Part shown: positions 1 through 11,234 of the stretch, piece by piece | How positions within the stretch are numbered: the stretch's first letter is position 1 | How the letters are laid out: the number at the start of each line of letters is the position of its first letter | IMG/VR virus record: IMGVR_UViG_3300029922_002860 | Source: a virus | Taxonomy: Duplodnaviria; Heunggongvirae; Uroviricota; Caudoviricetes | Strand: one strand, 5' to 3' | Length of the DNA: 11,721 bases | Notes under the pieces: generated by a model | The model's database searches: none | The model's input: the letters and a program-made list of their open reading frames with translations, nothing else | What the model was told of the DNA's origin: nothing | Program-made: the position numbers and the translations under genes

Positions 1-948
1 GAGGTTCTCGTCCGAGAAACCAAGCTGGGGAAGGGGCAGCGTGCTCTTCTGCTTGTCGAGAATACGCATGACCGCGCCTTCGCCGTGGTTGAGGGGAGCT
101 GTCGATACGCGCAAGTCGATGTCGAGGCTCTTCTTCGTGAACTGCTTGAAGACGATGCGTCCATCCTGGGGCAACCGACGCTCGGAGATGTCCAGGTTGC
201 ACATGATCTTGATACGGGCGATCAGCGACGGCCCGAACTTTCGCGGAAGCCTCAGGTATTCGCGGGTCCCGCCGTCCACGCGGAACCGGACGACAAGCTC
301 CTTTTCCTGCGGAGACAAATGAATGTCCGATGCACCCTGGAAGTATGCGTCCTCAATGATCTTCGAGGCCATCGCGACAACGGGGCCGGAGTCTTCGCCA
401 AGGTTTTCGCCTGAATCCTCCTCAACTTCGGCATGCCCGAATTCATCGGCTATTCCCGCGAGGACCGACTTCAATTCAGCGCCGCCGTCGTTTCCTGACG
501 GCTGCGTGAGCTTCTTTAATCGCGTCTCAATATCCGCCGATGGGACCGCGATAAAGAGCGGGGTGAGATTGGAGATGCCTTTGATCTCGTCCCTCAGGTC
601 CGTGGCTGCGGTGAAATGGTCCGCCCCGGCGTGAATCAGGAGATACTCGCCAAGTACGCCCATCGGGATGATCTTCTGTGCGGCACAGTAGTCCATCGGG
701 ATGTGTTCGAACGTCTTTGCGGTGACCTTGCCGCGCGGCATCGAGGTGGCCAGGATTCCCATGCCGCGCATACGGGCGATGTGCAGGCAAAGCGGAGTGA
801 TGGCGTAGTCCGTGGCCAATAGCGTCTCGAACGACTCCATCGTCGGCTGCCCCTCGATCTTCTCCAATGCAGCGACCTGGGGTTGCTGGAGCAGCCCGAG
901 TGTTGCGAGGCGAGCAACGGTAGTAGACTGGAGTCGGGTTAGCGGCAT
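1..948 (-). CDS. pilB: PilB/GspE-family type IV pilus / T2SS assembly ATPase, N-terminal part (runs off the left end of the window)
   Basis: Hand translation from ATG at 948 is open to base 1: MPLTRLQSTTVARLATLGLL...TFEHIPMDYCAAQKIIPMGVLGEYLLI (T2SSE_N-like) ...GPVVAMASKIIEDAYFQGASDIHLSPQEKELVVRFRVDG...RIKIMCNLDISERRLPQDGRI...DLRVSTAPLNHGEGAVMRILD. ASDIH, RFRVDG, LDISERRLPQDGR and DLRVST are hallmark PilB/GspE motifs. Walker A lies beyond the window, so PilB versus GspE is not resolved. Confidence 0.93.
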   Translation of the reverse strand, partial: MPLTRLQSTTVARLATLGLLQQPQVAALEKIEGQPTMESFETLLATDYAITPLCLHIARMRGMGILATSMPRGKVTAKTFEHIPMDYCAAQKIIPMGVLGEYLLIHAGADHFTAATDLRDEIKGISNLTPLFIAVPSADIETRLKKLTQPSGNDGGAELKSVLAGIADEFGHAEVEEDSGENLGEDSGPVVAMASKIIEDAYFQGASDIHLSPQEKELVVRFRVDGGTREYLRLPRKFGPSLIARIKIMCNLDISERRLPQDGRIVFKQFTKKSLDIDLRVSTAPLNHGEGAVMRILDKQKSTLPLPQLGFSDENL

Positions 949-949
949 T

Positions 950-1501
950 TCAAGTGACGGCCGGTGCCGGCAGCAGGGACTTGGCGACAGGCTTGGCGAA
1001 GGCGGCTCGCACCCATGCCTCGCGTAAGTTTTCCAGGGTTGTCGAATGCCAGACTATGCCCCTCCCGAAGACGCCTTCCCAGTACGTGCGCTCCTGCTCA
1101 GCGAGAAAATGCGATGTGGCGATAAACACCAACCCACCGTCCTTGTCGAACGGCAGTGAACGAGTGTCCACGCATTGCTCCCTTGTGATGCCCTTCAGTA
1201 GTTCCTCGTTGAAATCCATGAAGGCCAGATTAACCGGGGGTACGTGGAAGTGCTCCATCGTGTACCGAATGAGATCCTCCTCCTTGAGCGCACGCTGCTC
1301 ATACACGAGCACGTCGAGAATGCTAAAGCCTATCAGCACGTTGCCCTCCTCCCCCTTGTCCCTCCGCAAAACAAAGCTCTCGTTTGCTGACGTAAGTTGG
1401 TCTGTCGAAACCGAGAAGTGGGGGGTGTCGATCTCGACAAGCGCAGCAGCGAGGTGACGATCAACTCGGGACGAAATTGCTGAGGGAGGTGTGCGCGCCA
1501 T
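950..1501 (-). CDS. Stand-alone T2SSE_N/MshEN-like domain protein, pilus-associated hypothetical (183 aa)
   Basis: ILDVLVYEQRALKEEDLIRYTMEHFHVPPVNLAFMDFNEELLKGITREQCVDTRSLPFDKDGGLVFIATS follows the pattern of the PilB/GspE N-terminal domain. Its stop (950-952) is 1 nt from the pilB ATG (TGA-A-ATG), implying translational coupling. Confidence 0.75.
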   Translation of the reverse strand: MARTPPSAISSRVDRHLAAALVEIDTPHFSVSTDQLTSANESFVLRRDKGEEGNVLIGFSILDVLVYEQRALKEEDLIRYTMEHFHVPPVNLAFMDFNEELLKGITREQCVDTRSLPFDKDGGLVFIATSHFLAEQERTYWEGVFGRGIVWHSTTLENLREAWVRAAFAKPVAKSLLPAPAVT

Positions 1502-1508
1502 GGGCCGT

Positions 1509-1548
1509 GAAATAAGTTAGCCGCCCTCGAAGGAGGGCAGCGGGCTAA
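1509..1548 (-). terminator. Stem-loop with short U-rich tail in the leader of the pilus operon (possible terminator/attenuator)
   Basis: Plus strand: ttagcc-gccctc-gaag-gagggc-agcg-ggctaa (1517-1548), two nested perfect 6-bp stems. On the minus strand it is followed by CTTATTT. Confidence 0.55.
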
Positions 1549-1569
1549 ATGGGGCTGAAGGCACACCTA

Positions 1570-1577
1570 AAGTATGG
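1570..1577 (-). promoter_or_regulatory. CCAT motif copy (CCATACTT), putative -10 element
   Basis: Minus strand CCCCATACT-TTAGGT-GTG: 6 nt before a GTG (1564) that opens a 15-codon uORF, and 69 nt upstream of the ATG at 1501. Confidence 0.55.
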
Positions 1578-1748
1578 GGTGAAACCGTCTGGGAAGCCTT
1601 TTTGTGGGAGCGCCGACACGCATTCGTTAAGGACATGAAATGCGCACCGTCGCTCCACGGGCGACTCACGAAGCCCCGTTCCGGGGGTTCCCTCGACCGG
1701 AGACAGTTAGATGGCGATGCCGGGAGGCACAGGGTCATGGCATCCAAT

Positions 1749-1768
1749 GCCCAATTCCGCGATTGGGC
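1749..1768 (-). terminator. Hairpin just after the stop of the 140-aa gene
   Basis: gcccaat-tccgcg-attgggc, a perfect 7-bp stem 6 nt downstream of the TAA at 1775-1777. The U-tail is weak. Confidence 0.4.
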
Positions 1769-1774
1769 GGAACC

Positions 1775-2197
1775 TTACGAGGACAGGGCGGGGACCGTCA
1801 CCGTAGGGCCGGCGGCGGTGGTCGGCTTGGGAGGAGCCGCTATTGGTACGCGAGGGGCAGGGGCGGGAGTCGCAGCGGCGTGCATGGCCGCCTTGAGCTG
1901 GCTCAACTTACTGGCCTCTTCCGGGTGGGATTCGATGGCCGCAGAGAAAAGGACATCGTCGCGTTTATCGGTCAGCTCCTTGATCTGGGCGTTTAGGTCT
2001 TTGACCACCTGGGAGGATGCGGCCGTATCCTGCAAAATCTTCTGGGCCTGAAGGTAATCGTTCATCGGGAGCCCATACGGCTTCATTTCGCCCGGGGCAT
2101 TCGCCCCCTTCGGGCCATCGGCCGCCCTCCCGAAACTGGCGATGAGGGGCATGGCGACAGCCGCTACGATAAAGGTGCGAAGGATAGATGACTTCAT
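1775..2197 (-). CDS. Secreted/periplasmic helical hypothetical protein with Pro/Ala-rich tail (140 aa)
   Basis: Sec-type signal peptide MKSSILRTFIVAAVAMPLIASFGRA|AD, an amphipathic helical middle (VVKDLNAQIKELTDKRDD) and a PAPAPRVPIAAPPKP tail. A motif copy lies 6 nt before the ATG. Confidence 0.8.
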   Translation of the reverse strand: MKSSILRTFIVAAVAMPLIASFGRAADGPKGANAPGEMKPYGLPMNDYLQAQKILQDTAASSQVVKDLNAQIKELTDKRDDVLFSAAIESHPEEASKLSQLKAAMHAAATPAPAPRVPIAAPPKPTTAAGPTVTVPALSS

Positions 2198-2202
2198 GTC
2201 CT

Positions 2203-2210
2203 AATTATGG
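2203..2210 (-). promoter_or_regulatory. CCAT motif copy (CCATAATT), putative leaderless -10
   Basis: Minus strand CCCCATAAT-TAGGAC-ATG(2197); 6-nt spacer. Confidence 0.65.
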
Positions 2211-2274
2211 GGGGCAGCGGGGCGAGAATGCAGCGCCGGCAACCGCTGCCTGGTGCCGGACCCGGCCTTTGCCC

Positions 2275-2281
2275 AAGATGG
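2275..2281 (-). promoter_or_regulatory. CCAT motif copy (CCATCTT) just after the helicase stop
   Basis: Minus strand TGA-TCGCCCCATCTTGGGC. The motif sits in the loop of a GCCC/GGGC hairpin, 77 nt upstream of the ATG at 2197. Confidence 0.45.
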
Positions 2282-2286
2282 GGCGA

Positions 2287-3513
2287 TCATGCGGCGCATA
2301 AACGCATGGTTCCTGCATGGACTCGCCCACTGCGCTTGGTGGGTATAGGTTCCCCGAGGACGAAATCGGGGGCAGCCTCATCGAGGGAGGCCACCGCGGT
2401 TGCGGCGAGTTTGCGTGCGCGTTTCGCGCGAGCCGCCTTGTTGCGGAGTCCCCCAAGGGACGATTGGCTCTTGGGATCGAGCGTGAAGGTCTGCGTGTTC
2501 ATCTTCCGGTCAGCTTCGCGGATAGCCTCAAGCAGAAGCTTCGTGTTCGGGGTCAGGGAGAGCCAAAGGCCCGGACCTGCCTTCGAGTAACTGATTTGCG
2601 GCATCGCCGTGCGGCCGAAATTCCACCCCGTATGCTTCGACTGGACGATGTTCTTGAGCGGAAGCCCCGGGAACTTGCGCAGAACCCGCCCAGCCATCTG
2701 GATCGTCGGCCCCTTATCCGAGTCCCTAACAAACACAGTCGCAAGGCTCGGGCAGTCCCAACCCTCTGAAAGCACCATCATGTTGATGAGAACGTCCAGC
2801 TTGCCGCTCTCGAAATCGGCCAACTGCCGCTCCCGATCCGTGCTCGCCGTGACGACCTCGACCGTGACTCCTCCCGCAAGAAGCAGGCTCTGGCACTCAT
2901 AGCACTCCTCCGAGGTCCGGAAGAAGATTGCGGTACGGCCCCACGTATCAATGCGCTCAAAATAAGCCTCGGCAACGCTCCTGGGGGTGTACTCGTCAAG
3001 TTGCCAGTGCGCGTACGGCGAGAGGTATCCGTCCTGGATCAGCCGATGGTACCCCGCCTCTTGGATGATCCGCTGGAAGCAGAGCTTGAGGTTGTCGGTT
3101 CGCATAGGCGTGGCCGAAAGCCCGATGGTGAACGCCGGATTGCAAATGTCCCACAGGGCGACACAGGTGTCGGCAGCGGAATGGTGCGCCTCGTCCAAGA
3201 CAAGGACCACTTTCTCGAATGCGCCCATCTTCTCCTCGATGTGGCTATCGAACGCGGAAATCGGAACAAGGTTCTTTGCTCCAACCATCAGGTTATCCCT
3301 GACCACCTGATCGAGAAGGGTGCGGCGCATCGCGACCCAAGCGATCCCCACCGCGGGGTCATCGGCCTGCAACGCCTTCGAAGCCCTCAACCCCATGACG
3401 GTCTTGCCGGAACCCGTCGGGCTAACGATCATGACGGATTCCAAGCCCTCGTCATACGCACCGAGAGCTTTTTCGTGGACGGCGTCTTGATACGGACGTG
3501 ATTCGAGAAGCAT
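2287..3513 (-). CDS. Superfamily 2 DEAH-box helicase (ResIII + Helicase_C type, RadD/YejH/Irc3-like), about 408 aa
   Basis: Q motif RPYQ, Walker A SPTGSGKT, DEAH (LDEAHH), motif III SAT, motif V LSEGWDCP, motif VI QMAGRVLR. Start placed at ATG 3513 (MLLESRPYQ) because the longer track start overlaps the upstream gene and a motif copy precedes 3513. Confidence 0.93.
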   Translation of the reverse strand: MLLESRPYQDAVHEKALGAYDEGLESVMIVSPTGSGKTVMGLRASKALQADDPAVGIAWVAMRRTLLDQVVRDNLMVGAKNLVPISAFDSHIEEKMGAFEKVVLVLDEAHHSAADTCVALWDICNPAFTIGLSATPMRTDNLKLCFQRIIQEAGYHRLIQDGYLSPYAHWQLDEYTPRSVAEAYFERIDTWGRTAIFFRTSEECYECQSLLLAGGVTVEVVTASTDRERQLADFESGKLDVLINMMVLSEGWDCPSLATVFVRDSDKGPTIQMAGRVLRKFPGLPLKNIVQSKHTGWNFGRTAMPQISYSKAGPGLWLSLTPNTKLLLEAIREADRKMNTQTFTLDPKSQSSLGGLRNKAARAKRARKLAATAVASLDEAAPDFVLGEPIPTKRSGRVHAGTMRLCAA

Positions 3514-3518
3514 GTCCC

Positions 3519-3525
3519 AAGATGG
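3519..3525 (-). promoter_or_regulatory. CCAT motif copy (CCATCTT), putative leaderless -10
   Basis: Minus strand GTCCCATCTT-GGGAC-ATG(3513); 5-nt spacer. It also forms the hairpin GTCCCA-TCT-TGGGAC. Confidence 0.6.
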
Positions 3526-3541
3526 GACCCCGGAAACCCGC

Positions 3542-4873
3542 CTAAACCATCCTGACCGGGGGCCTCGGAACCCGGGCGGGCTCCTCGGAGCCTGCATCGA
3601 CCAGGGCCGGAACCTCGCCCATTTCCTCCCGCAAGAGCGCAGTGCCGTCCGACTCGGCGGGGTCCGAGGGCTTTTTGCCTCCATCGGCAGGGGCGGCGAC
3701 GGCCTCCGTCTCCTTACGGGGACCCTTCGACTTGCGCCGGGGGAAGCTGCGGCCCGTTATGACGTTCCCAGGCTTCACGGCATCCTCCGCGAGATACGAC
3801 TCCATCGTGGTTCGCCCGCCTTCGCTCTCAAGGGTGCCTTCAAGGTCGAAGCCGGAATCGTCGGCCAGCAGCCCGCCAATCCACTCGTAGATCGAATCCA
3901 CCTTGCCCTTGGCCTCCTTGCTGGCAATTTCCGCGCCGAGCATTATTAGGTCGGCCACCGAGAAATTAGACGGGGCGCGCACGAGCCTCTTCTTGCTGAC
4001 GACGCCAAGCGAGGAGAGGCCGAAGCGGCTGGCTTCGTCGTAGGCGAAGCGGCTCAACCTGGTCCGTGCAACGTCTGAGACGGACGCATTCGTGACGGCC
4101 TTCTCAAACTCAAGGAACTCCGCGAGACTTGCGCTCGCGCTGTGGGCGGCCTCGATGCGCGTAGCGAGCGTACCGAAACCCTCCTCGTTCGAGAAGCCTC
4201 GGGTGAAACGGGCAAGAGCAGAGACGTATTTGCCGCTCTCCTCCCCGATATTGGCCGAGGAACAGAACGCCTTGGACTGCGCACGGAGGGATACGCCGCG
4301 AGAACGCAGGGCGAGGGACAGCCATGCCGTGGGCTTTCCCCAACCGTCCACAGAGACCCGGATGGTCATGTTAGGGGAGAATTCCAGATCGAAGAAGGAA
4401 AACGGCTTGTGCCTATCGGAAACGTCATAGGTCACCCGAAACTCGCCGTCGCCGTCATAATCCCCGAGGGTGCCTGCGGCCCCCAACATTTCCATGTACT
4501 TCTCAAGGTGCGGGAGCGCGAAATGGCGCTTGGTAAAGGGCGAGACGGCCAGGGCCTTCGTGCGCCCCCCGGTTCGGTCGATGGCAATAACCGCCTTGTC
4601 GCCAACCTTGTGGCGCGCTATGCCGCGAGCTATGACCTCGTCCGGGCTGAAAAGGTTGAACACGCTCGGGCTCTGCCCAAGAAGCGTGGCGAAGGAGACG
4701 CCGAAGCGTGAGGTGTACTCCATCTCTTCGCCAGCGATATTGACCTTGGTCACAACCACGCCGCCTGTCGAAAGCTTGTCGGCGTCAAAGGTCAGCTTGA
4801 CGCTCGGGAGGTCGAAGGAGCGGTACTCAATCATGGCCCCACCGAAGGTGAATGTTTGGCTGTAGTGTTCCAT
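3542..4873 (-). CDS. DUF932-like hypothetical protein (443 aa) with low-complexity charged C-terminal tail
   Basis: Long ORF in the operon-like run. Segments YTSRFGVSF, VSVDGWGKPTAWLSL, GFSNEEGFGTLATRIEAA, FGLSSLGVVSKKR and WIGGLL...FDLEGT resemble, from recollection only, a PVC-phylum family annotated as DUF932-domain that neighbours DEAD/DEAH helicases. The CDS is solid; the family call needs an HMM search. Confidence 0.6.
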   Translation of the reverse strand: MEHYSQTFTFGGAMIEYRSFDLPSVKLTFDADKLSTGGVVVTKVNIAGEEMEYTSRFGVSFATLLGQSPSVFNLFSPDEVIARGIARHKVGDKAVIAIDRTGGRTKALAVSPFTKRHFALPHLEKYMEMLGAAGTLGDYDGDGEFRVTYDVSDRHKPFSFFDLEFSPNMTIRVSVDGWGKPTAWLSLALRSRGVSLRAQSKAFCSSANIGEESGKYVSALARFTRGFSNEEGFGTLATRIEAAHSASASLAEFLEFEKAVTNASVSDVARTRLSRFAYDEASRFGLSSLGVVSKKRLVRAPSNFSVADLIMLGAEIASKEAKGKVDSIYEWIGGLLADDSGFDLEGTLESEGGRTTMESYLAEDAVKPGNVITGRSFPRRKSKGPRKETEAVAAPADGGKKPSDPAESDGTALLREEMGEVPALVDAGSEEPARVPRPPVRMV

Positions 4874-4879
4874 GTGTCT

Positions 4880-4886
4880 AAGATGG
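4880..4886 (-). promoter_or_regulatory. CCAT motif copy (CCATCTT), putative leaderless -10
   Basis: Minus strand TGA-CTCCCATCTT-AGACAC-ATG(4873); 6-nt spacer, inside a 16-nt intergenic gap. Confidence 0.62.
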
Positions 4887-4889
4887 GAG

Positions 4890-6029
4890 TCAGTCTTGGC
4901 GCATGGGCATGACCAGCGCGGCGTACCCCTCGGAGTCGAGGCGGACGGGGCAGGCCGTGCTGCCCACCGTCACGGCCACATTCGATGAAGGGACCCCGGC
5001 GATGGCCTCACAGAGAAACCGAGGATTAACCCCGACTCGGCCTTTCGGCCCGGTTACTTCCGCCACGAGTGTGTCCGCGGCCGCCGTCTCGTTACCTTTC
5101 CCGCTCCCAGAGAAATCTAGTCCCGACTCGGACCACGCCATGGTGATCGAGGGGACTTCCCCGTCGCAGGCAAGGGACACGCGCTTTGCGGTTTCGCCCA
5201 AGACGATACTCGGGACTGAGAATTTTGCAGGGGTCATCAGGGCGGCGCCCAAGACCTTGTCGATGGGAGGAAACAAGCCCTCCGTGTTCGTTGCCTGGAA
5301 GATGAAGGACGGAATCCCCTCAGGCGCTTCCGGAGTAAATTCTCCAGTGGTGAGGTTCCCGCAGACGTTCAACTGGAGCGTCCCTTGCGCGCTCCGCATG
5401 ATTCGGGCAAGGGCAAGGACTGCCGGACGCGCAAGGACCACAGATTGGGTGGCTTCGCTCGGGGTCGTCAGGCTAACCGTGCGTTGCGCCAGTCGGCGTC
5501 CGTCGGTGGCGGTGAAGACGATGCGGTCCTTGTTGAAGGCGATCTGCACTCCGCGCATAGTCGGCCGGTTCTCGTCGTCGGACATCGAATGCATGACGGA
5601 ACTGAGGCCGGAGCCGAAGGACTCTCCAAGCAGTTCCCATCCTGGAGTTGCGGCGAGGACCGCAACAGGGGAAGGCAGCGCCTCGTAGGGAGTCACAGCC
5701 GTGATGCGAAAGGTGCTCCGGCCCGCCTTCAGAACCAAGGCCGACAACCTTCCTGGACCCGCTGAAATCGTGAGGTCTCCGTCGTCGAGTTCGCGTATGA
5801 TGGGGGTCAGAAGCTTGGCAGGGATGCAGCAGCGGATGTCGCCAGCCGTCGAAGCAGCGACTGACGTTTCAAGGAAGAGCGCAAAGTTGCACGCCGCGAC
5901 CCTTATACTGCCGTTGGCGGAATGGACACGGAACGCATCAGCCCCGGACTTCGCCCCTGCGGCCAACGCCGGAGCAACCAACGAGAGTGCTTCGAGGAGC
6001 CGGGTTTTTGGGATTGTGACGCTGGGCAT
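4890..6029 (-). CDS. dnaN: DNA polymerase III beta sliding clamp, divergent accessory copy (379 aa)
   Basis: Typical length and clamp motifs: IPAKLLTPIIREL, SDDENRPTMRGV, ATDGRRLA, EGLFPPIDKV, GVNPRFLCEAI and C-terminal ALVMPMR. No dnaA, recF or gyrB neighbours. Confidence 0.92.
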   Translation of the reverse strand: MPSVTIPKTRLLEALSLVAPALAAGAKSGADAFRVHSANGSIRVAACNFALFLETSVAASTAGDIRCCIPAKLLTPIIRELDDGDLTISAGPGRLSALVLKAGRSTFRITAVTPYEALPSPVAVLAATPGWELLGESFGSGLSSVMHSMSDDENRPTMRGVQIAFNKDRIVFTATDGRRLAQRTVSLTTPSEATQSVVLARPAVLALARIMRSAQGTLQLNVCGNLTTGEFTPEAPEGIPSFIFQATNTEGLFPPIDKVLGAALMTPAKFSVPSIVLGETAKRVSLACDGEVPSITMAWSESGLDFSGSGKGNETAAADTLVAEVTGPKGRVGVNPRFLCEAIAGVPSSNVAVTVGSTACPVRLDSEGYAALVMPMRQD

Positions 6030-6034
6030 AACCT

Positions 6035-6041
6035 AAGATGG
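6035..6041 (-). promoter_or_regulatory. CCAT motif copy (CCATCTT), putative leaderless -10
   Basis: Minus strand TCGCCATCTT-AGGTT-ATG(6029); 5-nt spacer. A small hairpin (gaggc-aattctg-gcctc, 6043-6059) overlapping the upstream stop precedes it. Confidence 0.62.
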
Positions 6042-6057
6042 CGAGGCAATTCTGGCC

Positions 6058-9000
6058 TCAGAAACCTGCGACAGGATCGAAGGTCGGCGTTGTTGACGGC
6101 TCTTTGAGCGGCGGGAAGCGGCGTTCGTCGGTGCCGGGGAATGCCTGGTTGCGTGCGGGGCGAGCTTCGGCCGTCAAAGAGGTGCGAACGTCGGCAGCGA
6201 TGCCCTGATAGTCGATCTCCGGGGGCCAGCGAGACGGGTCGTTGTCCATGGAGTTCCCAAGAACCCCGAGCCAGTGGGTGCGCGCGGAAGCGATTTCCTT
6301 GCGCGACAAGCCTTGTATCAGTGCGCGGAAGTGGGGCCGCCCCTCGATTACCGACAAGGCGCGCCGGGCGTCCGCCCCGTCTCCGGCCGGATCTGGAGAC
6401 CCGCCAATGAGGCTTTGAACGGCCTCAGAGTGGTGGAGGTGCTCGGCCAACCGAGGGAATTTGTGAAGGCACTCGCGCCACCGGTCCTCATGACCCCTCG
6501 GGATGGTCCCGGAGATGCGGGTGTCCGGGTTGGCAGTGAAGAAGCGTTCGCGCTCGGATGCGTCGGGGAAGACCTGCCGGCAGCGGGCTGCATATTCCTC
6601 GTCCTCCGGAGTACGCTCGGTCAGCAGCGACGGAGGGTCCTTGCGACAGAGGGTCGGGGGGAGGTTGCGGAGGCTAACCGCGTCCCGGGTCATCTCGACT
6701 GCCCCCGGGAGGCAGCAGATGTCGAAAGTGCCGTCGTCGTTGGGCGTCTGTTGCAGGGCCGAGTCAAAGTATTGCTGGGCAACCATGGCCTCGGGAGCCG
6801 TGAGCGGCCAAACCTCCATGCGGCCCATGTGGCGCTCGGCCTCGTGAACCAGCCCCTTGTCCCGGTCCTTGGCGCTGAGCCCGGGGACGACGAATATCCC
6901 CATGTCGGAGTATTTCTCCGCCAACGCGCGGACCCCTATGAGGCGCATGGCCATGTCCGTCTGGGTGTTCGCCATGGTGTACGGCATTTCGAGGACCACG
7001 ACGGGACGGTTCCGCTGACCGGAGTGAAGAAGCCGGACAATGGACCTCCCCACGACCCTGTGGGAACCCGGGTCAACGAACTGCACGAGCTTCGAGTGGG
7101 CATCAGCCAGTACGGAGAGTCCCGCCCCGGCCTCTTTGCCGTAGCTAAGAAGGGCGTGACAGGTCTTTACCGGATAGTCGCCGTGCCTCAGGAGTTCGCC
7201 AAAATCGCTGCTCTCGCGGACGGAGAGGGCCACCCCCAGGGTCTCGCCGTACCACGCGCGGTCCTCGCGCCACCGGGCGATCAGTTCGGGCGAGGCCCCG
7301 CTGAGCTGCCGCTTCGACATGTGGTGGGTGTACTTCCATTCCTGAAAATTCCCGTGGGCATATTCGCGGATGCCATAGGAGATGACCCTCTTGGCCTTTT
7401 CCCGCATCGCGTAAGATGTGACGCGGGTCGCCTCGTCCCGAGTGACAAGGATCGACGCCAGAAGAACCTTGGCCTGGTGGGCGTCATGCAGCGTGTTGAG
7501 GACGGTCGGGTCGGCTACCGCGACGCCGGCGGCAAACGCACTGGCCGGGGCGTGGGTGGCGTCCGTGAGCAGGCGCATGATCCGCTCCTCCTGCGAAAGT
7601 TGCCCGGAGATCGCCAGGTCCTTGCGCGCCTCGCGAAGCGACGGGGTCTTTTCAACGGCCATCATCACGTAGCTCGGCTCGCCCTCGGCGAGGTCGTTGC
7701 GTTCGTGATCGTGCGCGGCAATCAAGGCGAACAGGGACCTCAACTCTTTCTCCCGGCCCTTGGCGCTATCGCCCGGATTGTACCTGCCCACGAGATCGAG
7801 GACGGACGCGTCCGGGCAGTGGCCGGCACGCGCACCGGTCTCCAAAATGGACAACATTCGGTGCTCTACATAATAGAGCCCGCGAACAGAGCGGAGGTCC
7901 TCCTGCACACGGGTGAAACGGGACTGCTCCGCACTTGTGAGTCCGAAATCGAAATCCCCAGAAGTGCCTTCGCCGTGAACACGGAAGAACAGGCGGGACT
8001 CGATGGCAGTCGATGGGAAGATCAGATCGCTGCGGCAGAGTTTTCCGACACTCTCGGGTGTCAGGGGTTGGCAGCGGCGAAGGATGGCCGCCAAGGTCTT
8101 ACCAACTGTCTCGCGCTCCTCCCCGTTCACCAGGGGAGAAATGCTCTCAGCAATGTTCGTGGCCAGATTTCCGTCGCTCAGCTGGCCGGCATTCGACAGG
8201 CACTGGCGAAGGACCGCGGTGCGGTCGCTAACCGAGAGAAGCGTGGTTTGCGCGGCGTCAATGGCAGCCGAGCGAACCGCAATTGCCTTACGCTCGGGGG
8301 TGTCTTCGGTTGATTCGATCAGGTACTTGGCGGCGTTGTTTTCCTGAGACCACCCTGCCGTGACCATCCCATCGCATGCGAGGATGAGCTGGGCGATAGC
8401 GTTCTGGGGGTGGTTGTAGCGCATCGCATTGGCCCGAAATTCCATGTACTCCTCGGGGCGCATGCTGCTGTGGAGGAAGTGGGCGGAGAGTGTCTTTGCC
8501 GACTGTTGCGTGGCGACCGATGTGCGCAAGCCGCCGGGTTCGGTCGGGGGAGAGAGTAGTGCGCTCGTCAAAATCCAACTGTGGGGACTCTTCATCCAGT
8601 CCGCTTCGACAAGGAGTCCGGACGTGACCGCAAATTTCCGCAGATGGGGCCGCTCTCCTGCGAATGCCAGCACGTTTCGCCTTAACGCCTGCCGCGCGAT
8701 GGTCATGTCGCTGCCGGAAAGGATGTCCGTGCGAATGGGCCATTCGCCTAGGTCGAAGATCCCCAGGGCCGAATGATGCAGGAAGCTGGTTTTGTTGAGG
8801 TGTACAGGCGGGGAAAGGAGCGAGGAGCCCTTGGCCTCGCCGTAGCCCTCCTCCAGCGCAAACATGTCGGCGATCAGCGCCGGGTCCCGCCTTGCAAATG
8901 CATGGGCAAGGTCGAGCCGGTTGGTTTGGTTGATCTGCCAGAGATCCGAACCGGGACCGGAGTACGATGCATTGGGATTGGCCAGAGCCGCGGCTGCCCT

Positions 9001-9522
9001 CTTGTAGATGTCGTCAACCCCCATGCTTCGCGTCTGCTCCCAGTAGATGCCTACAGCCGGGGCGAAGCAGGTTTCTCCAAGGGTCTGCCAGTTTGCATTA
9101 ACCCGGGGAGACGAATCCGCGTCCACCCCGATGATACGGGGTAGGGGCAGGGCGCGTTGGGCTGTGAATTCGCATCCAACCCAGACGGCGAGGCGCATCC
9201 AGGCGTCCGACTGTTCCTTGCCGACAGCCTCGACCCACGCTGCGGGTTTTGGCGGAGGAGGCATCAGGTTCTCTGTCTCTGCCGAAAGACCCGGGGGGAG
9301 CATGCTCCATCCCTCGCTCAGACTTACGGCTGTGCCTACCAAGAGCGTCGCGTACCGGCCAACCTCCGGCGAAGTGCCTTTGACGCCTGCACCCTGGGTC
9401 TGGAGGAAGTTGATCGAGTCCGCCCGGTCCGTGACCAGGCTATGGCCAATAGCCTTTGCCGCGATGCTTCGAAGTATAGCCGCCCCTTGCTCAGGGAGGG
9501 GTATTCGGCAAAGGGCTTCCAT
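6058..9522 (-). CDS. Large hypothetical protein (1154 aa) with a possible PcfJ/GNAT-like module at about 6900-7370
   Basis: 3.4-kb uninterrupted ORF, co-directional, with a motif copy before the ATG. Segment GNFQEWKY...RQL...W...ESSDFGELLRHGDYPVKTCH...LADAHSKLV...VVGRSIVRLL...PVVVLEMPY resembles a recurring uncharacterised module (recollection). The CDS is solid; the domain call is weak. Confidence 0.8.
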   Translation of the reverse strand: MEALCRIPLPEQGAAILRSIAAKAIGHSLVTDRADSINFLQTQGAGVKGTSPEVGRYATLLVGTAVSLSEGWSMLPPGLSAETENLMPPPPKPAAWVEAVGKEQSDAWMRLAVWVGCEFTAQRALPLPRIIGVDADSSPRVNANWQTLGETCFAPAVGIYWEQTRSMGVDDIYKRAAAALANPNASYSGPGSDLWQINQTNRLDLAHAFARRDPALIADMFALEEGYGEAKGSSLLSPPVHLNKTSFLHHSALGIFDLGEWPIRTDILSGSDMTIARQALRRNVLAFAGERPHLRKFAVTSGLLVEADWMKSPHSWILTSALLSPPTEPGGLRTSVATQQSAKTLSAHFLHSSMRPEEYMEFRANAMRYNHPQNAIAQLILACDGMVTAGWSQENNAAKYLIESTEDTPERKAIAVRSAAIDAAQTTLLSVSDRTAVLRQCLSNAGQLSDGNLATNIAESISPLVNGEERETVGKTLAAILRRCQPLTPESVGKLCRSDLIFPSTAIESRLFFRVHGEGTSGDFDFGLTSAEQSRFTRVQEDLRSVRGLYYVEHRMLSILETGARAGHCPDASVLDLVGRYNPGDSAKGREKELRSLFALIAAHDHERNDLAEGEPSYVMMAVEKTPSLREARKDLAISGQLSQEERIMRLLTDATHAPASAFAAGVAVADPTVLNTLHDAHQAKVLLASILVTRDEATRVTSYAMREKAKRVISYGIREYAHGNFQEWKYTHHMSKRQLSGASPELIARWREDRAWYGETLGVALSVRESSDFGELLRHGDYPVKTCHALLSYGKEAGAGLSVLADAHSKLVQFVDPGSHRVVGRSIVRLLHSGQRNRPVVVLEMPYTMANTQTDMAMRLIGVRALAEKYSDMGIFVVPGLSAKDRDKGLVHEAERHMGRMEVWPLTAPEAMVAQQYFDSALQQTPNDDGTFDICCLPGAVEMTRDAVSLRNLPPTLCRKDPPSLLTERTPEDEEYAARCRQVFPDASERERFFTANPDTRISGTIPRGHEDRWRECLHKFPRLAEHLHHSEAVQSLIGGSPDPAGDGADARRALSVIEGRPHFRALIQGLSRKEIASARTHWLGVLGNSMDNDPSRWPPEIDYQGIAADVRTSLTAEARPARNQAFPGTDERRFPPLKEPSTTPTFDPVAGF

Positions 9523-9527
9523 AGTAC

Positions 9528-9535
9528 AAGTATGG
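9528..9535 (-). promoter_or_regulatory. CCAT motif copy (CCATACTT), putative leaderless -10
   Basis: Minus strand ACGCCATACT-TGTACT-ATG(9522); 6-nt spacer. Confidence 0.65.
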
Positions 9536-9542
9536 CGTGACC

Positions 9543-9630
9543 CAGGTAGGGAAATCGCCAGGGCCTCCCTCTGGGGGACCTAAGGCAGGTAGGGGCGTCC
9601 GAGGGGGGAGGCCCCCGGGGGGTGGGCAAA
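9543..9630. repeat. G-rich intergenic spacer with a direct and an inverted repeat
   Basis: caggtaggg at 9543-9551 and 9586-9594; gggcctccc (9561-9569) and gggaggccc (9606-9614); several G runs on the plus strand. Confidence 0.45.
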
Positions 9631-10566
9631 TCAGGCCCGGGCCAAGTCAAAAACGCCTTCGGAGAACTCAGGGAAGGCCGACAGCTCGTCGGGGAATTCC
9701 TTGCGCAGTTCAGGGGCGAGAGTTAGCAAGTTAGTGAGGTAGCGGTGGCAGTCCCTGGCCGCTTCCATCGCGCCGCGATTGCGATGGTACTCGTACTGCC
9801 AGAGCCACGACTCAACGGTCACAGCCCAGCAGTGCATCTTGGAGTGATCCACACCCCCAGTGCGCGAACGGTGCGGGAACCACAGTTCCGAGAAGTCATG
9901 ATAGAAGCCCGAGAACCGCTTGAGCTGCATCGTAAGCTGAGCCAGGTCGCAATACGCGCCCTCTGAGTGGTAATTGGCCATTCCGCATCCGAAGTTGATA
10001 CCACAGGCTCCGAGATGCTCCAGATCGGACACGCACGAGTAGGACCCGTGGCCAACTTCAAACCCAGCTCCCGTGAGAATTCGGTACAGATGGGGGTTGT
10101 CGTACTGGTAGCAGACCACGTCGGTCCCTTTGCGGTCGAACGAGAATATCCAGTTGTACGGTTTCCTCGTGTGGACGATGGCCGCGGTGGAGGCCGCCTG
10201 CTCCTCGTCCGTGGTCAAGAGGAGGTCCACGTGAAGATTCATCGCGGGCAGGACCTCAAGCCCGAGGTAAACCCCAAGACGATTGTCCAGCCCGGGGTGG
10301 AGGAGACGGTTCTTCTCCGAATCGAGCACGACCACGGCTCCCCGTAGAGGAAGAACCGTGTCCACGTGGGCGACCATCAAGACCGGGCTGTTCCGCTGGA
10401 TCAGGCAGGCACAGTGGGTGCCGCTCCCGAATTTCTTGTAGAAGATCGGGCCTGTCACCTGGCCGTGCCGATTCAACTGCGCGAAGTCCTCGGGGTTGTG
10501 CGACTCCATGTTCGCGATCCGCCCGAAGCGACCGAGGTCAAACTGCGGAGGGAGGATCTCGGGCAT
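9631..10566 (-). CDS. Binuclear Zn exopeptidase/amidohydrolase of the M28/M20/M42 (clan MH) fold (311 aa)
   Basis: Metal-ligand pattern in the expected order: AHVDTV (HxD), GLDNRLG (D), TDEE (catalytic E plus ligand E), SFDRKG (D), NYHSE (H). No signal peptide. Starts 2 nt after the upstream stop. Confidence 0.85.
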   Translation of the reverse strand: MPEILPPQFDLGRFGRIANMESHNPEDFAQLNRHGQVTGPIFYKKFGSGTHCACLIQRNSPVLMVAHVDTVLPLRGAVVVLDSEKNRLLHPGLDNRLGVYLGLEVLPAMNLHVDLLLTTDEEQAASTAAIVHTRKPYNWIFSFDRKGTDVVCYQYDNPHLYRILTGAGFEVGHGSYSCVSDLEHLGACGINFGCGMANYHSEGAYCDLAQLTMQLKRFSGFYHDFSELWFPHRSRTGGVDHSKMHCWAVTVESWLWQYEYHRNRGAMEAARDCHRYLTNLLTLAPELRKEFPDELSAFPEFSEGVFDLARA

Positions 10567-10568
10567 GG

Positions 10569-11177
10569 TTACTTCGCCAGCGAATTGATGCCGTTCAGGT
10601 CGAAGGGGGCGAACTCAGTCGTGCCCTTCATGAATTCCTTCACGGCCAGCACGCCGGCGTTGTCGCTCTGGAAGAGAGCGCATTCACCTGTGCCCCGCTC
10701 GTATCCGACGATCCAGCGGGACATGCGCGCCGAAGACTCCGAGTCCTCGGCGATGGGGGTCACGTAGAGCTTGCTCCGGATGACATCGGTGGACAGCCCG
10801 CGCTCGCGAAGCAGCCGCTCCAGCTTCTGGTAGAGGCCGGTCAGGGGGCCGAACATCTCCACGGGAACCCGCAAAGTCAGCTCGTCCTGGACATAGAAAG
10901 TGGGAGTCGTCTCGCCGCGGAAGATCACGAAGCCCATCACGAAACGCTTGGAGGGCTCCTTGCCCGTGCGGCGCTTCAGGATCTTCTCGATGGACTCCAT
11001 CGGGCGGCTCTGGTCGAAGACCTTGCCGTAGAGCCTGCCGGTCTTGATGGCCTCGGCCTCGCTGGCGGGCATCGTGATGAATGCATCGTCGATGCACATC
11101 TCCTCCAGCAGGTCGCCACGGTAGGCGAACTGGAACGGAGGCTGGATGCCTGGCTCAAGATTGCGGTTGGGGTTCAT
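10569..11177 (-). CDS. Hypothetical protein (202 aa)
   Basis: ORF with strong C/G-ending codon bias, coupled to the peptidase gene (TAA-CC-ATG). No recognisable motif. Confidence 0.8.
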   Translation of the reverse strand: MNPNRNLEPGIQPPFQFAYRGDLLEEMCIDDAFITMPASEAEAIKTGRLYGKVFDQSRPMESIEKILKRRTGKEPSKRFVMGFVIFRGETTPTFYVQDELTLRVPVEMFGPLTGLYQKLERLLRERGLSTDVIRSKLYVTPIAEDSESSARMSRWIVGYERGTGECALFQSDNAGVLAVKEFMKGTTEFAPFDLNGINSLAK

Positions 11178-11227
11178 CGCGGTGGAAGTTTTTCGAAAGG
11201 AGAAAGCCGATGCCTTCTGAGTGTTTT

Positions 11228-11234
11228 AAGATGG
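11228..11234 (-). promoter_or_regulatory. CCAT motif copy (CCATCTT)
   Basis: Minus strand AACCATCTTAAAA, 50 nt upstream of the ATG at 11177. A TATCTT variant lies 15 nt further upstream. Confidence 0.5.

Follow-up and report, generated by a model that had tools for sequence, protein, structure and literature searches.

In the leaderless promoters of Actinobacteria and Deinococcus-Thermus, the -10 element TANNNT stands about 6-7 nucleotides (nt) before the start codon. Among phages, the late promoters of T4, TATAAATA, are read with gp55, gp33, and the sliding clamp, and the middle and late promoters of phiEco32 are read with gp36. Both kinds of system resemble the signal analyzed here, a recurrent word cCCAT(C/A)NT found in the 11,721-nt virus record IMGVR_UViG_3300029922_002860 (Caudoviricetes; the whole of this stretch is called the window below) and in the surrounding part of the giant plasmid- or phage-like element to which it belongs. 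As in the leaderless promoters, a -10-like hexamer with A in position 2 and T in position 6 lies directly upstream of ATG, and there is no Shine-Dalgarno sequence. However, the leaderless promoters use the housekeeping -10 of the host, genome-wide, whereas the word of the element has an invariant C after CC, is absent from host-lineage genomes, and is confined to the mobile element and its relatives. As in T4 and phiEco32, it is a -10-only signal, with no -35, that precedes many genes of a mobile genome possessing sigma-family genes of its own, but the sequences are unrelated, and Pfam and PHROGs searches of 48.9 kb of the element revealed no homologs of gp55, gp33, or gp36. Mobile-element-specific single-box promoters that give leaderless mRNAs are a known kind of signal; a sequence with C at -12 in a Verrucomicrobiota setting appears to be undescribed in the literature searched. 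We suggest, with a probability of about 0.6, that the word is an element-specific, -35-independent promoter of the -10 type, which would produce leaderless or near-leaderless mRNAs.

The enrichment of the word before genes, first noticed in the window, extends beyond it. The analyzed region of 48.9 kb was joined from five overlapping loci of one 71.7-kb JGI contig and contains 44 gene starts called independently in public assemblies. CCAT[AC]NT precedes 16 of these 44 starts, compared with 0.08 starts expected (binomial P = 4.8e-33); the distance from its first C to the ATG is 12-16 nt (modes 12 and 13). In two further genes, a motif copy is followed 13 nt later by an in-frame ATG, and about 40% of the genes examined have the word 5-9 nt before ATG. 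All 16 motif genes start with ATG, a restriction compatible with start codons at the 5' end of the mRNA, while GTG is used by three of the remaining 28 genes. Each of the 18 CCAT words close to a start continues as (C/A)NT, forming the hexamer CAT(C/A)NT, and is oriented toward the gene. The distance between the 3' end of the hexamer and ATG is mostly 5-6 nt (range 5-9 nt). There are two length classes, CCAT-C-TT and CCAT-A(A/C/G)-TT, and in both of them TT is mostly 5 nt before ATG. In a test of long stop-to-stop frames, the motif followed by ATG was found in 15 of 201 frames of the element and in none of the 1620 frames from 422 kb of Oleiharenicola lentus.

About ten further oriented copies are leadered, that is, situated 51-130 nt upstream of genes, and about half of these have no start codon within 9 nt. 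Every start-proximal copy and the ten listed leadered copies face the downstream gene. The 104-nt gap between two divergent genes contains one copy per strand, 13 and 14 nt from the respective ATG; since a promoter must exist in this gap for each direction, a promoter role of the word is favored there.

All genes of the window are on the minus strand. Its eight motif copies are situated exactly where the original prediction had placed them, all intergenic and on the coding (minus) strand, and the strict motif has no coding-strand copy within the coding sequences of the window, as had been claimed from a manual scan. Five copies directly precede an ATG, at a distance of 5 nt from the final TT in four cases and 6 nt in one, in agreement with the 5-6 nt reported. 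These are CCATAATT at 2203..2210, 5 nt before ATG 2197 of a protein of 140 amino acids (aa) with an N-terminal signal-peptide-like stretch; CCATCTT at 3519..3525, followed by GGGAC and ATG 3513 of an SF2 helicase and located inside a perfect 6-bp palindrome (folding energy -8.8 kcal/mol); CCATCTT at 4880..4886, 6 nt before ATG 4873 of a 443-aa protein, where it occupies the 16-nt gap behind the stop codon of the clamp gene; CCATCTT at 6035..6041, 5 nt before ATG 6029 of a DnaN-like sliding clamp (379 aa); and CCATACTT at 9528..9535, 5 nt before ATG 9522 of a 1154-aa orphan. The other three are leadered. CCATACTT at 1570..1577 has its first C 76 nt upstream of ATG 1501 of a 183-aa MshEN-like gene. 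CCATCTT at 2275..2281 is a second copy for the 140-aa gene, with its first C 84 nt upstream of ATG 2197 and no start codon within 9 nt. Finally, CCATCTT at 11228..11234 has its first C 57 nt upstream of ATG 11177 of a 202-aa protein, with a leader lacking a Shine-Dalgarno sequence and no start codon near the motif. The two copy-less genes, as noted earlier, follow an upstream stop almost immediately: ATG 948 of the PilB/GspE-like ATPase gene is 1 nt past the stop of the 183-aa gene (948..950, minus strand), and ATG 10566 of the peptidase-like gene is 2 nt past the stop of the 202-aa gene (10566..10571, minus strand). CCATCTT occurs six times in the window versus 1.33 expected, and six or more copies were seen in 2 of 200 shuffles; five are the coding-strand intergenic copies and the sixth, at 3225, is antisense within the helicase gene.

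The copy at 1570 had also been described as lying 6 nt before a GTG. The GTG is present, but the gap is 5 nt, and the codon opens a mini open reading frame of only 15 codons (1517..1564, minus strand), the 3' half of which is a 9-bp GC-rich hairpin (1541-1520) with a T-rich tail, a terminator-like site. The layout of 1517-1577, that is, the motif, 5 nt, the GTG mini-frame, the hairpin, and then the 183-aa gene, resembles a leader-peptide attenuator, and 1517..1564 can be regarded as a candidate leader peptide with a terminator. The public call of the 140-aa gene (window 1775-2197) starts 45 nt inside it and would cut the hydrophobic N-terminus, and the motif-proximal ATG 2197 restores the signal-peptide-like N-terminus of the protein. 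A similar shift of the public start, by 9 nt, was observed for the ART-PolyVal gene (L011:17232).

In an alignment of 27 oriented copies, C is enriched at the two to four bases preceding the motif. The motif is followed by T or G and then by G, with GGGA, GGGG, and GGGC common after CCATCTT; the G bias is partial (10 of 27 copies at the first base after the motif and 16 of 27 at the second). A weak T-rich patch lies 15-18 nt upstream of the motif, and no conserved upstream column resembling a -35 was seen among the aligned copies. The lack of a shared -35, noted before by eye, holds in a count over 28 sites, the set that was also used for folding: a TTGACA-like hexamer at 16-18 nt is present at one of them, compared with 3% at random positions. 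A scan of the window for sigma-70 consensus promoters yielded 0 hits versus 2.5 expected. No Shine-Dalgarno sequence is visible before any gene, again as first described, and O. lentus does not show such sequences either.

A link between the element and a host lineage is provided by the PilB/GspE-like ATPase, which is 60-63% identical to the chromosomal GspE of Opitutus, Oleiharenicola, Lacunisphaera, and other Opitutaceae. In O. lentus, GspE is encoded 2 nt downstream of a 174-aa gene, in the immediate neighborhood of ftsZ and obg (L015:9474-11725), and the pair of the 183-aa gene and the ATPase gene in the element (window 1-1501) mirrors this arrangement. The pair has the appearance of a unit acquired from the host lineage and is the strongest clue to the host in this analysis; by sequence identity and synteny, it points to Opitutales/Opitutaceae (Verrucomicrobiota) as the group to which the element is tied. 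The oxidoreductase gene gave no information on the host.

The motif coupled to ATG is rare in this lineage. CCATCTT-N5-6-ATG occurs 184 times per Mb in the element and 2.8 times per Mb in O. lentus. CCCATMNT-N5-6-ATG reaches 164 per Mb in the element and 2 per Mb in O. lentus, and none of 81 genomes from across the phylum exceeds about 16 per Mb. The stricter pattern CCCATMNTT-N4-5-ATG gives 82 per Mb in the element and under about 8 per Mb in 121 genomes of the order, whereas the loosest, CCATMNT-N5-7-ATG, gives 450 per Mb in the element and 48-74 per Mb in the five richest genomes, where the hits are scattered. Thus the comparison with host sequences, proposed along with the original prediction, came out in favor of an element-specific signal: the motif with ATG is 10-60 times rarer in O. 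lentus and about 200 Verrucomicrobiota genomes, which here stand in for the genome of the actual host. None of these genomes is an outlier near the density of the element.

As a reference for promoters of the host lineage we tried TTGACA-N16-18-TANNNT, which turned out to be rarer throughout the O. lentus genome than a reversed control, and the regions upstream of O. lentus tRNA genes were used instead. TTGAC is present in 11 of the 26 regions (background, 3.6%), at a distance of 39-65 nt upstream of the tRNA, and TTGAC(A/G) is followed 17-18 nt later by a weak nACTnT box (L042-L070); the element motif occurs in 0 of the 26. For rRNA, a candidate O. lentus promoter consists of TTGATA, 16 nt, and CATGTT (L040:1170-1340). 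Since the O. lentus tRNA regions have TTGAC and nACTnT and in none of them is the word of the element found, the element sites, with a strong C-initiated -10 and no -35, appear to differ in architecture from promoters of the host lineage.

Three diverged relatives keep the word while their flanks differ, and this suggests that it is a trait of the element family. In L009, encoding a clamp 42% identical to that of the window, CCATCTT precedes both the clamp gene and the following homolog of the 443-aa gene; the spacer between the motif and the start is 8 nt instead of 5-6 nt, and the flanks are unrelated. L037 and L038 encode PilB homologs with 68-69% identity, and have two start-proximal copies and one leadered copy, respectively. 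The L038 copy belongs to class A (CCATAATT) and lies about 97 nt upstream, at a place homologous to that of the 1570 copy, in surrounding sequence that is otherwise unalignable. In L009, an extra 95-aa gene is inserted after the clamp gene, and the C/A-rich 36-nt spacer (L009:1500-1536) contains no motif.

Taken at face value, these features outline the following mechanism. The word cCCAT(C/A)NT, with T or G and then G as its usual next bases, would be the -10-type core element of a promoter class peculiar to the element. The hexamer CAT(C/A)NT would retain the key positions of a -10, A at 2 and T at 6, and have an invariant C where sigma-70 promoters have T, along with a C-rich upstream edge, a G-rich, GGGA-like discriminator, and no -35. 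Because the 3' end of the motif is mostly 5-6 nt before ATG, RNA polymerase would start at the A of ATG or a few bases from it, and the resulting leaderless or near-leaderless mRNA would need no Shine-Dalgarno sequence. Copies situated 51-130 nt upstream would give leadered mRNAs, and genes that overlap the previous gene or begin 1-2 nt from it, which have no copy, would be co-transcribed with it. The promoter interpretation put forward in the original prediction is favored by the position and orientation of the copies, the ATG-only starts, the long-leader and divergent-gap copies, the conservation in relatives, the rarity in about 200 Verrucomicrobiota genomes, and the presence of sigma-family genes on the element. 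Its other components, transcription starting at the A of ATG and separate transcription of each gene even across gaps of 16-28 nt, are predictions; that the word is a promoter and that a non-housekeeping, perhaps element-encoded, sigma factor reads it we infer from sequence.

The search for a sigma factor or RNA polymerase on the contig, another check named at the outset, was half successful: two sigma-family genes are located 15-23 kb from the window, but no RNA polymerase was found in the 48.9 kb. One of them encodes a FliA/WhiG-like sigma factor of 238 aa, about 15 kb from the window, with regions 2-4 (148.7 bits versus a family cut-off of 189.6) and with WhiG and FliA as the closest solved relatives. 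The other, about 22 kb from the window, encodes a very diverged ECF-like protein of 225 aa, in which only region 4 is recognized. The ECF-like gene is itself preceded by CCATCTT, 7 nt, and ATG (L039:10540-10570). The FliA-like gene is preceded by a different word, CCCCTATACCC (L039:3590-3610). A DnaN-like clamp is present, and both sigma proteins lack a clamp-binding motif at their C-termini.

Known sigma specificities were compared with the word. Promoters of sigma-28 (FliA/WhiG) have the form TAAA-N15-GCCGATAA (PMC12784957). Class A (cCCCATAAT) is one core base off GCCGATAA, and a FliA/WhiG-like gene is present on the element; however, the G at -12, which is contacted by sigma-28, is invariably C in the element, and no shared TAAA is seen. 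The FliA-like sigma was considered as the reader of the motif and judged less likely. It keeps the conserved region-2 residues of an ordinary sigma-28, and a near-canonical sigma-28 promoter, namely TAAA, 15 nt, GCCGATTA, 5 nt, and ATG, is found elsewhere, before a 260-aa gene (L003:2584-2640, minus strand; about one match is expected by chance). This site is possibly a target of the FliA-like sigma, and because of these two features the FliA-like sigma is probably not the reader of the motif. The -10 of E. coli sigma-32 (RpoH) is CCCCATNT (PMC6687850), and its likeness to the word, pointed out originally, is genuine in that AT comes after a C-rich run at the -10 position. However, the defining TTGAAA-type -35, needed 13-17 nt upstream of CCCCATNT, is absent from the element sites, the conserved final T of the element is shifted downstream by one position, and the 48.9 kb examined showed no rpoH-like gene. 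A GGGA directly downstream of the -10 is a known basal promoter element of Thermus aquaticus (PMC3526302). Similarly, G-rich bases come straight after the hexamer in the CCATCTT class and could offset the missing -35, but in T. aquaticus GGGA is read by region 1.2 of the housekeeping sigma beside TATAAT, whereas the hexamer of the element starts with C. The conserved final T and the G-rich discriminator also recall the region 1.2 contacts of housekeeping-type sigmas (PMC3526302), and host sigma A is a possible, though improbable, reader.

About 8 kb from the window, the element also carries at least 40 tRNA genes in an array (L006:14904-20432), with encoded CCA ends and very short T-rich spacers. 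Motif copies adjacent to tRNAs consist of the encoded CCA end and such a spacer; many spacers begin with TCTT or TTTT, producing CCATCTT or CCATTTT words by chance, and CCA followed by a T-rich spacer is likewise a feature of O. lentus tRNAs. The motif was rejected as a promoter of the array, since in none of the sub-arrays is a copy consistently spaced upstream of the leading tRNA. Beside the gene-free region preceding the array, at the end of a 180-aa gene, there is a perfect 16-bp palindrome, CCCCATAATTATGGGG (L006:13620-13640), formed by two head-to-head class-A copies.

Other functions of the word were weighed against the promoter role. It could act at the RNA level as a translation-initiation signal of a non-Shine-Dalgarno type, a landing site of the ribosome or an initiation factor for each cistron of long polycistronic mRNAs. 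Such a signal would stand 5-9 nt before the start, the classical distance of a ribosome-binding site, and would be missing, as the word is, exactly at translationally coupled genes, in an element and a host lineage that both show no Shine-Dalgarno sequences. We nevertheless consider it unlikely. The 16S rRNA of O. lentus has a canonical CCTCC tail, and a complement of the motif is absent both from this 3' tail and from the whole 16S rRNA. The leadered copies, far from the next start and in about half of the cases without a nearby start codon, would make little sense as ribosome-binding sites, and one of them is positionally kept in L038. Moreover, translation appears to be independent of the word, because uncoupled genes without it exist (with gaps of 11-36 nt), and the host lineage, which supplies the ribosomes, does not have the word before its own genes. 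It is similarly improbable that the word is an ordinary -10 read by the host holoenzyme, with either the housekeeping or an alternative host sigma, and hence not specific to the element. CATAAT and CATACT do match TATAAT at 4-5 of six positions, including the key A and T, the -10 of the candidate O. lentus rRNA promoter reads CATGTT, and the genomes compared are those of the host lineage and not of the actual host. However, the invariant first C and the preceding CC are not seen in O. lentus tRNA promoters, which rely on the strong TTGAC -35 that the element sites lack, and a host signal agrees poorly with the 10-60-fold rarity of the motif with ATG among genomes without a single outlier near the density of the element.

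Two further explanations seem very unlikely to us. According to one, the word is a processing site or a small hairpin in the RNA, where cleavage of polycistronic transcripts would release monocistronic leaderless mRNAs. The hairpins that had been noted at two copies are real for a few (-8.8 and -11.0 kcal/mol), but they are not general, since folding energies of -5 kcal/mol or better were obtained for only 9 of the 28 sites, and the z-scores of the 28 average -0.5. In a peat metatranscriptome, 6% of the stretch is covered by assembled contigs, in six short pieces, which cannot show transcription starts; one of them runs across the 1570 copy, which is compatible with processing but may represent read-through or DNA carry-over. 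The tRNA 3' ends of the array, reading CCA and then TCTT or TTTT, are suggestive of processing as well, but they are explained by encoded CCA and T-rich spacers, found also in the host lineage, and the copies that face both ways between divergent genes have no upstream transcript to cut. According to the other explanation, which is just as doubtful, the word is not a core promoter but an operator overlapping start sites, to which a repressor or activator would bind. Its consensus, CCCATCTTGGG, is partly palindromic, two copies form the perfect 16-bp palindrome near the tRNA array, and LexA-like and ParB-like DNA-binding genes are carried by the element. Yet the downstream half of the consensus is only a G-rich bias, a palindromic operator would not be expected to keep a strict orientation relative to the gene that follows, and the fixed spacing to ATG over 18 genes better fits an element that defines the start site.

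Several observations weigh against the promoter role that we prefer. The 5-9-nt spacing and the absence of the word from coupled genes are equally expected of a ribosome-binding signal. Copies in gaps of 16-28 nt would place the rest of the promoter inside the upstream gene, and no terminators lie between the transcription units. For CCATCTT copies, the A of ATG comes as early as 6 nt past the hexamer, one below the usual optimum. A few sense-strand copies occur within genes outside the window. The host assignment depends on one captured two-gene unit, and the ordinary region-2 residues of the FliA-like sigma, together with its near-canonical promoter before the 260-aa gene, count on the same side.

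In an extended form, which we find rather unlikely, the element would run a self-contained expression grammar: a dedicated sigma of its own would read the C-initiated -10 without a -35, and this, together with leaderless mRNAs and a near-complete tRNA set, would free the element of the promoter and ribosome-binding rules of the host. A bolder version has the orphan sliding clamp activate the promoters and couple them to replication, by analogy with T4 late transcription.

In the direction of transcription, the genes of the window are the end of a ParB-like gene; the 202-aa gene coupled to the peptidase-like gene; the 1154-aa orphan; the DnaN-like sliding clamp; the 443-aa gene; the SF2 helicase (408 aa); the 140-aa gene for a secreted-looking protein; and the 183-aa MshEN-like gene coupled to the gene of the PilB/GspE-type ATPase. 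Identical copies of the window proteins are encoded by many contigs from peat metagenomes, the longest of 260,824 bp. The 48.9-kb neighborhood also contains Rad52-like, SSB, LexA-like, and HNH genes and a PAS hybrid kinase, in addition to the two sigma-family genes, and the element resembles a plasmid more than it does a lytic phage. Among 5.8 billion proteins, the 1154-aa protein (window 6058-9522) has no relative detectable below 100% identity; Pfam, PHROG, and PDB give no match to it, and Atlas no informative one. It was considered as an RNA polymerase of the element and rejected, having no family match and no three-aspartate catalytic motif. A search of a viral contig collection with this protein gave no match, nor did two scans of a genome contig collection for the element, and a metagenome contig scan returned one remote, unrelated DnaN locus only, without the motif.

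The grammar of promoters is almost unknown in Verrucomicrobiota and in giant plasmids and huge phages from soil. If the promoter role of the word is correct, about 40% of the genes in the 48.9 kb of this element, whose longest contig is 261 kb, would be transcribed from a box of 8-10 nt directly onto the start codon, and transcription units could be mapped from sequence alone. Gene-start calls on such elements would be corrected; two public calls here appear to miss the motif-proximal ATG. The sigma factor and its promoter would form a pair with an unusual preference at -12, which could serve as an orthogonal expression part, and, should the expression grammar be self-contained, a natural orthogonal and possibly broad-host-range expression system in Verrucomicrobiota. 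Even with a host sigma as the reader, the motif would remain the first class of leaderless promoters to be defined in the phylum.

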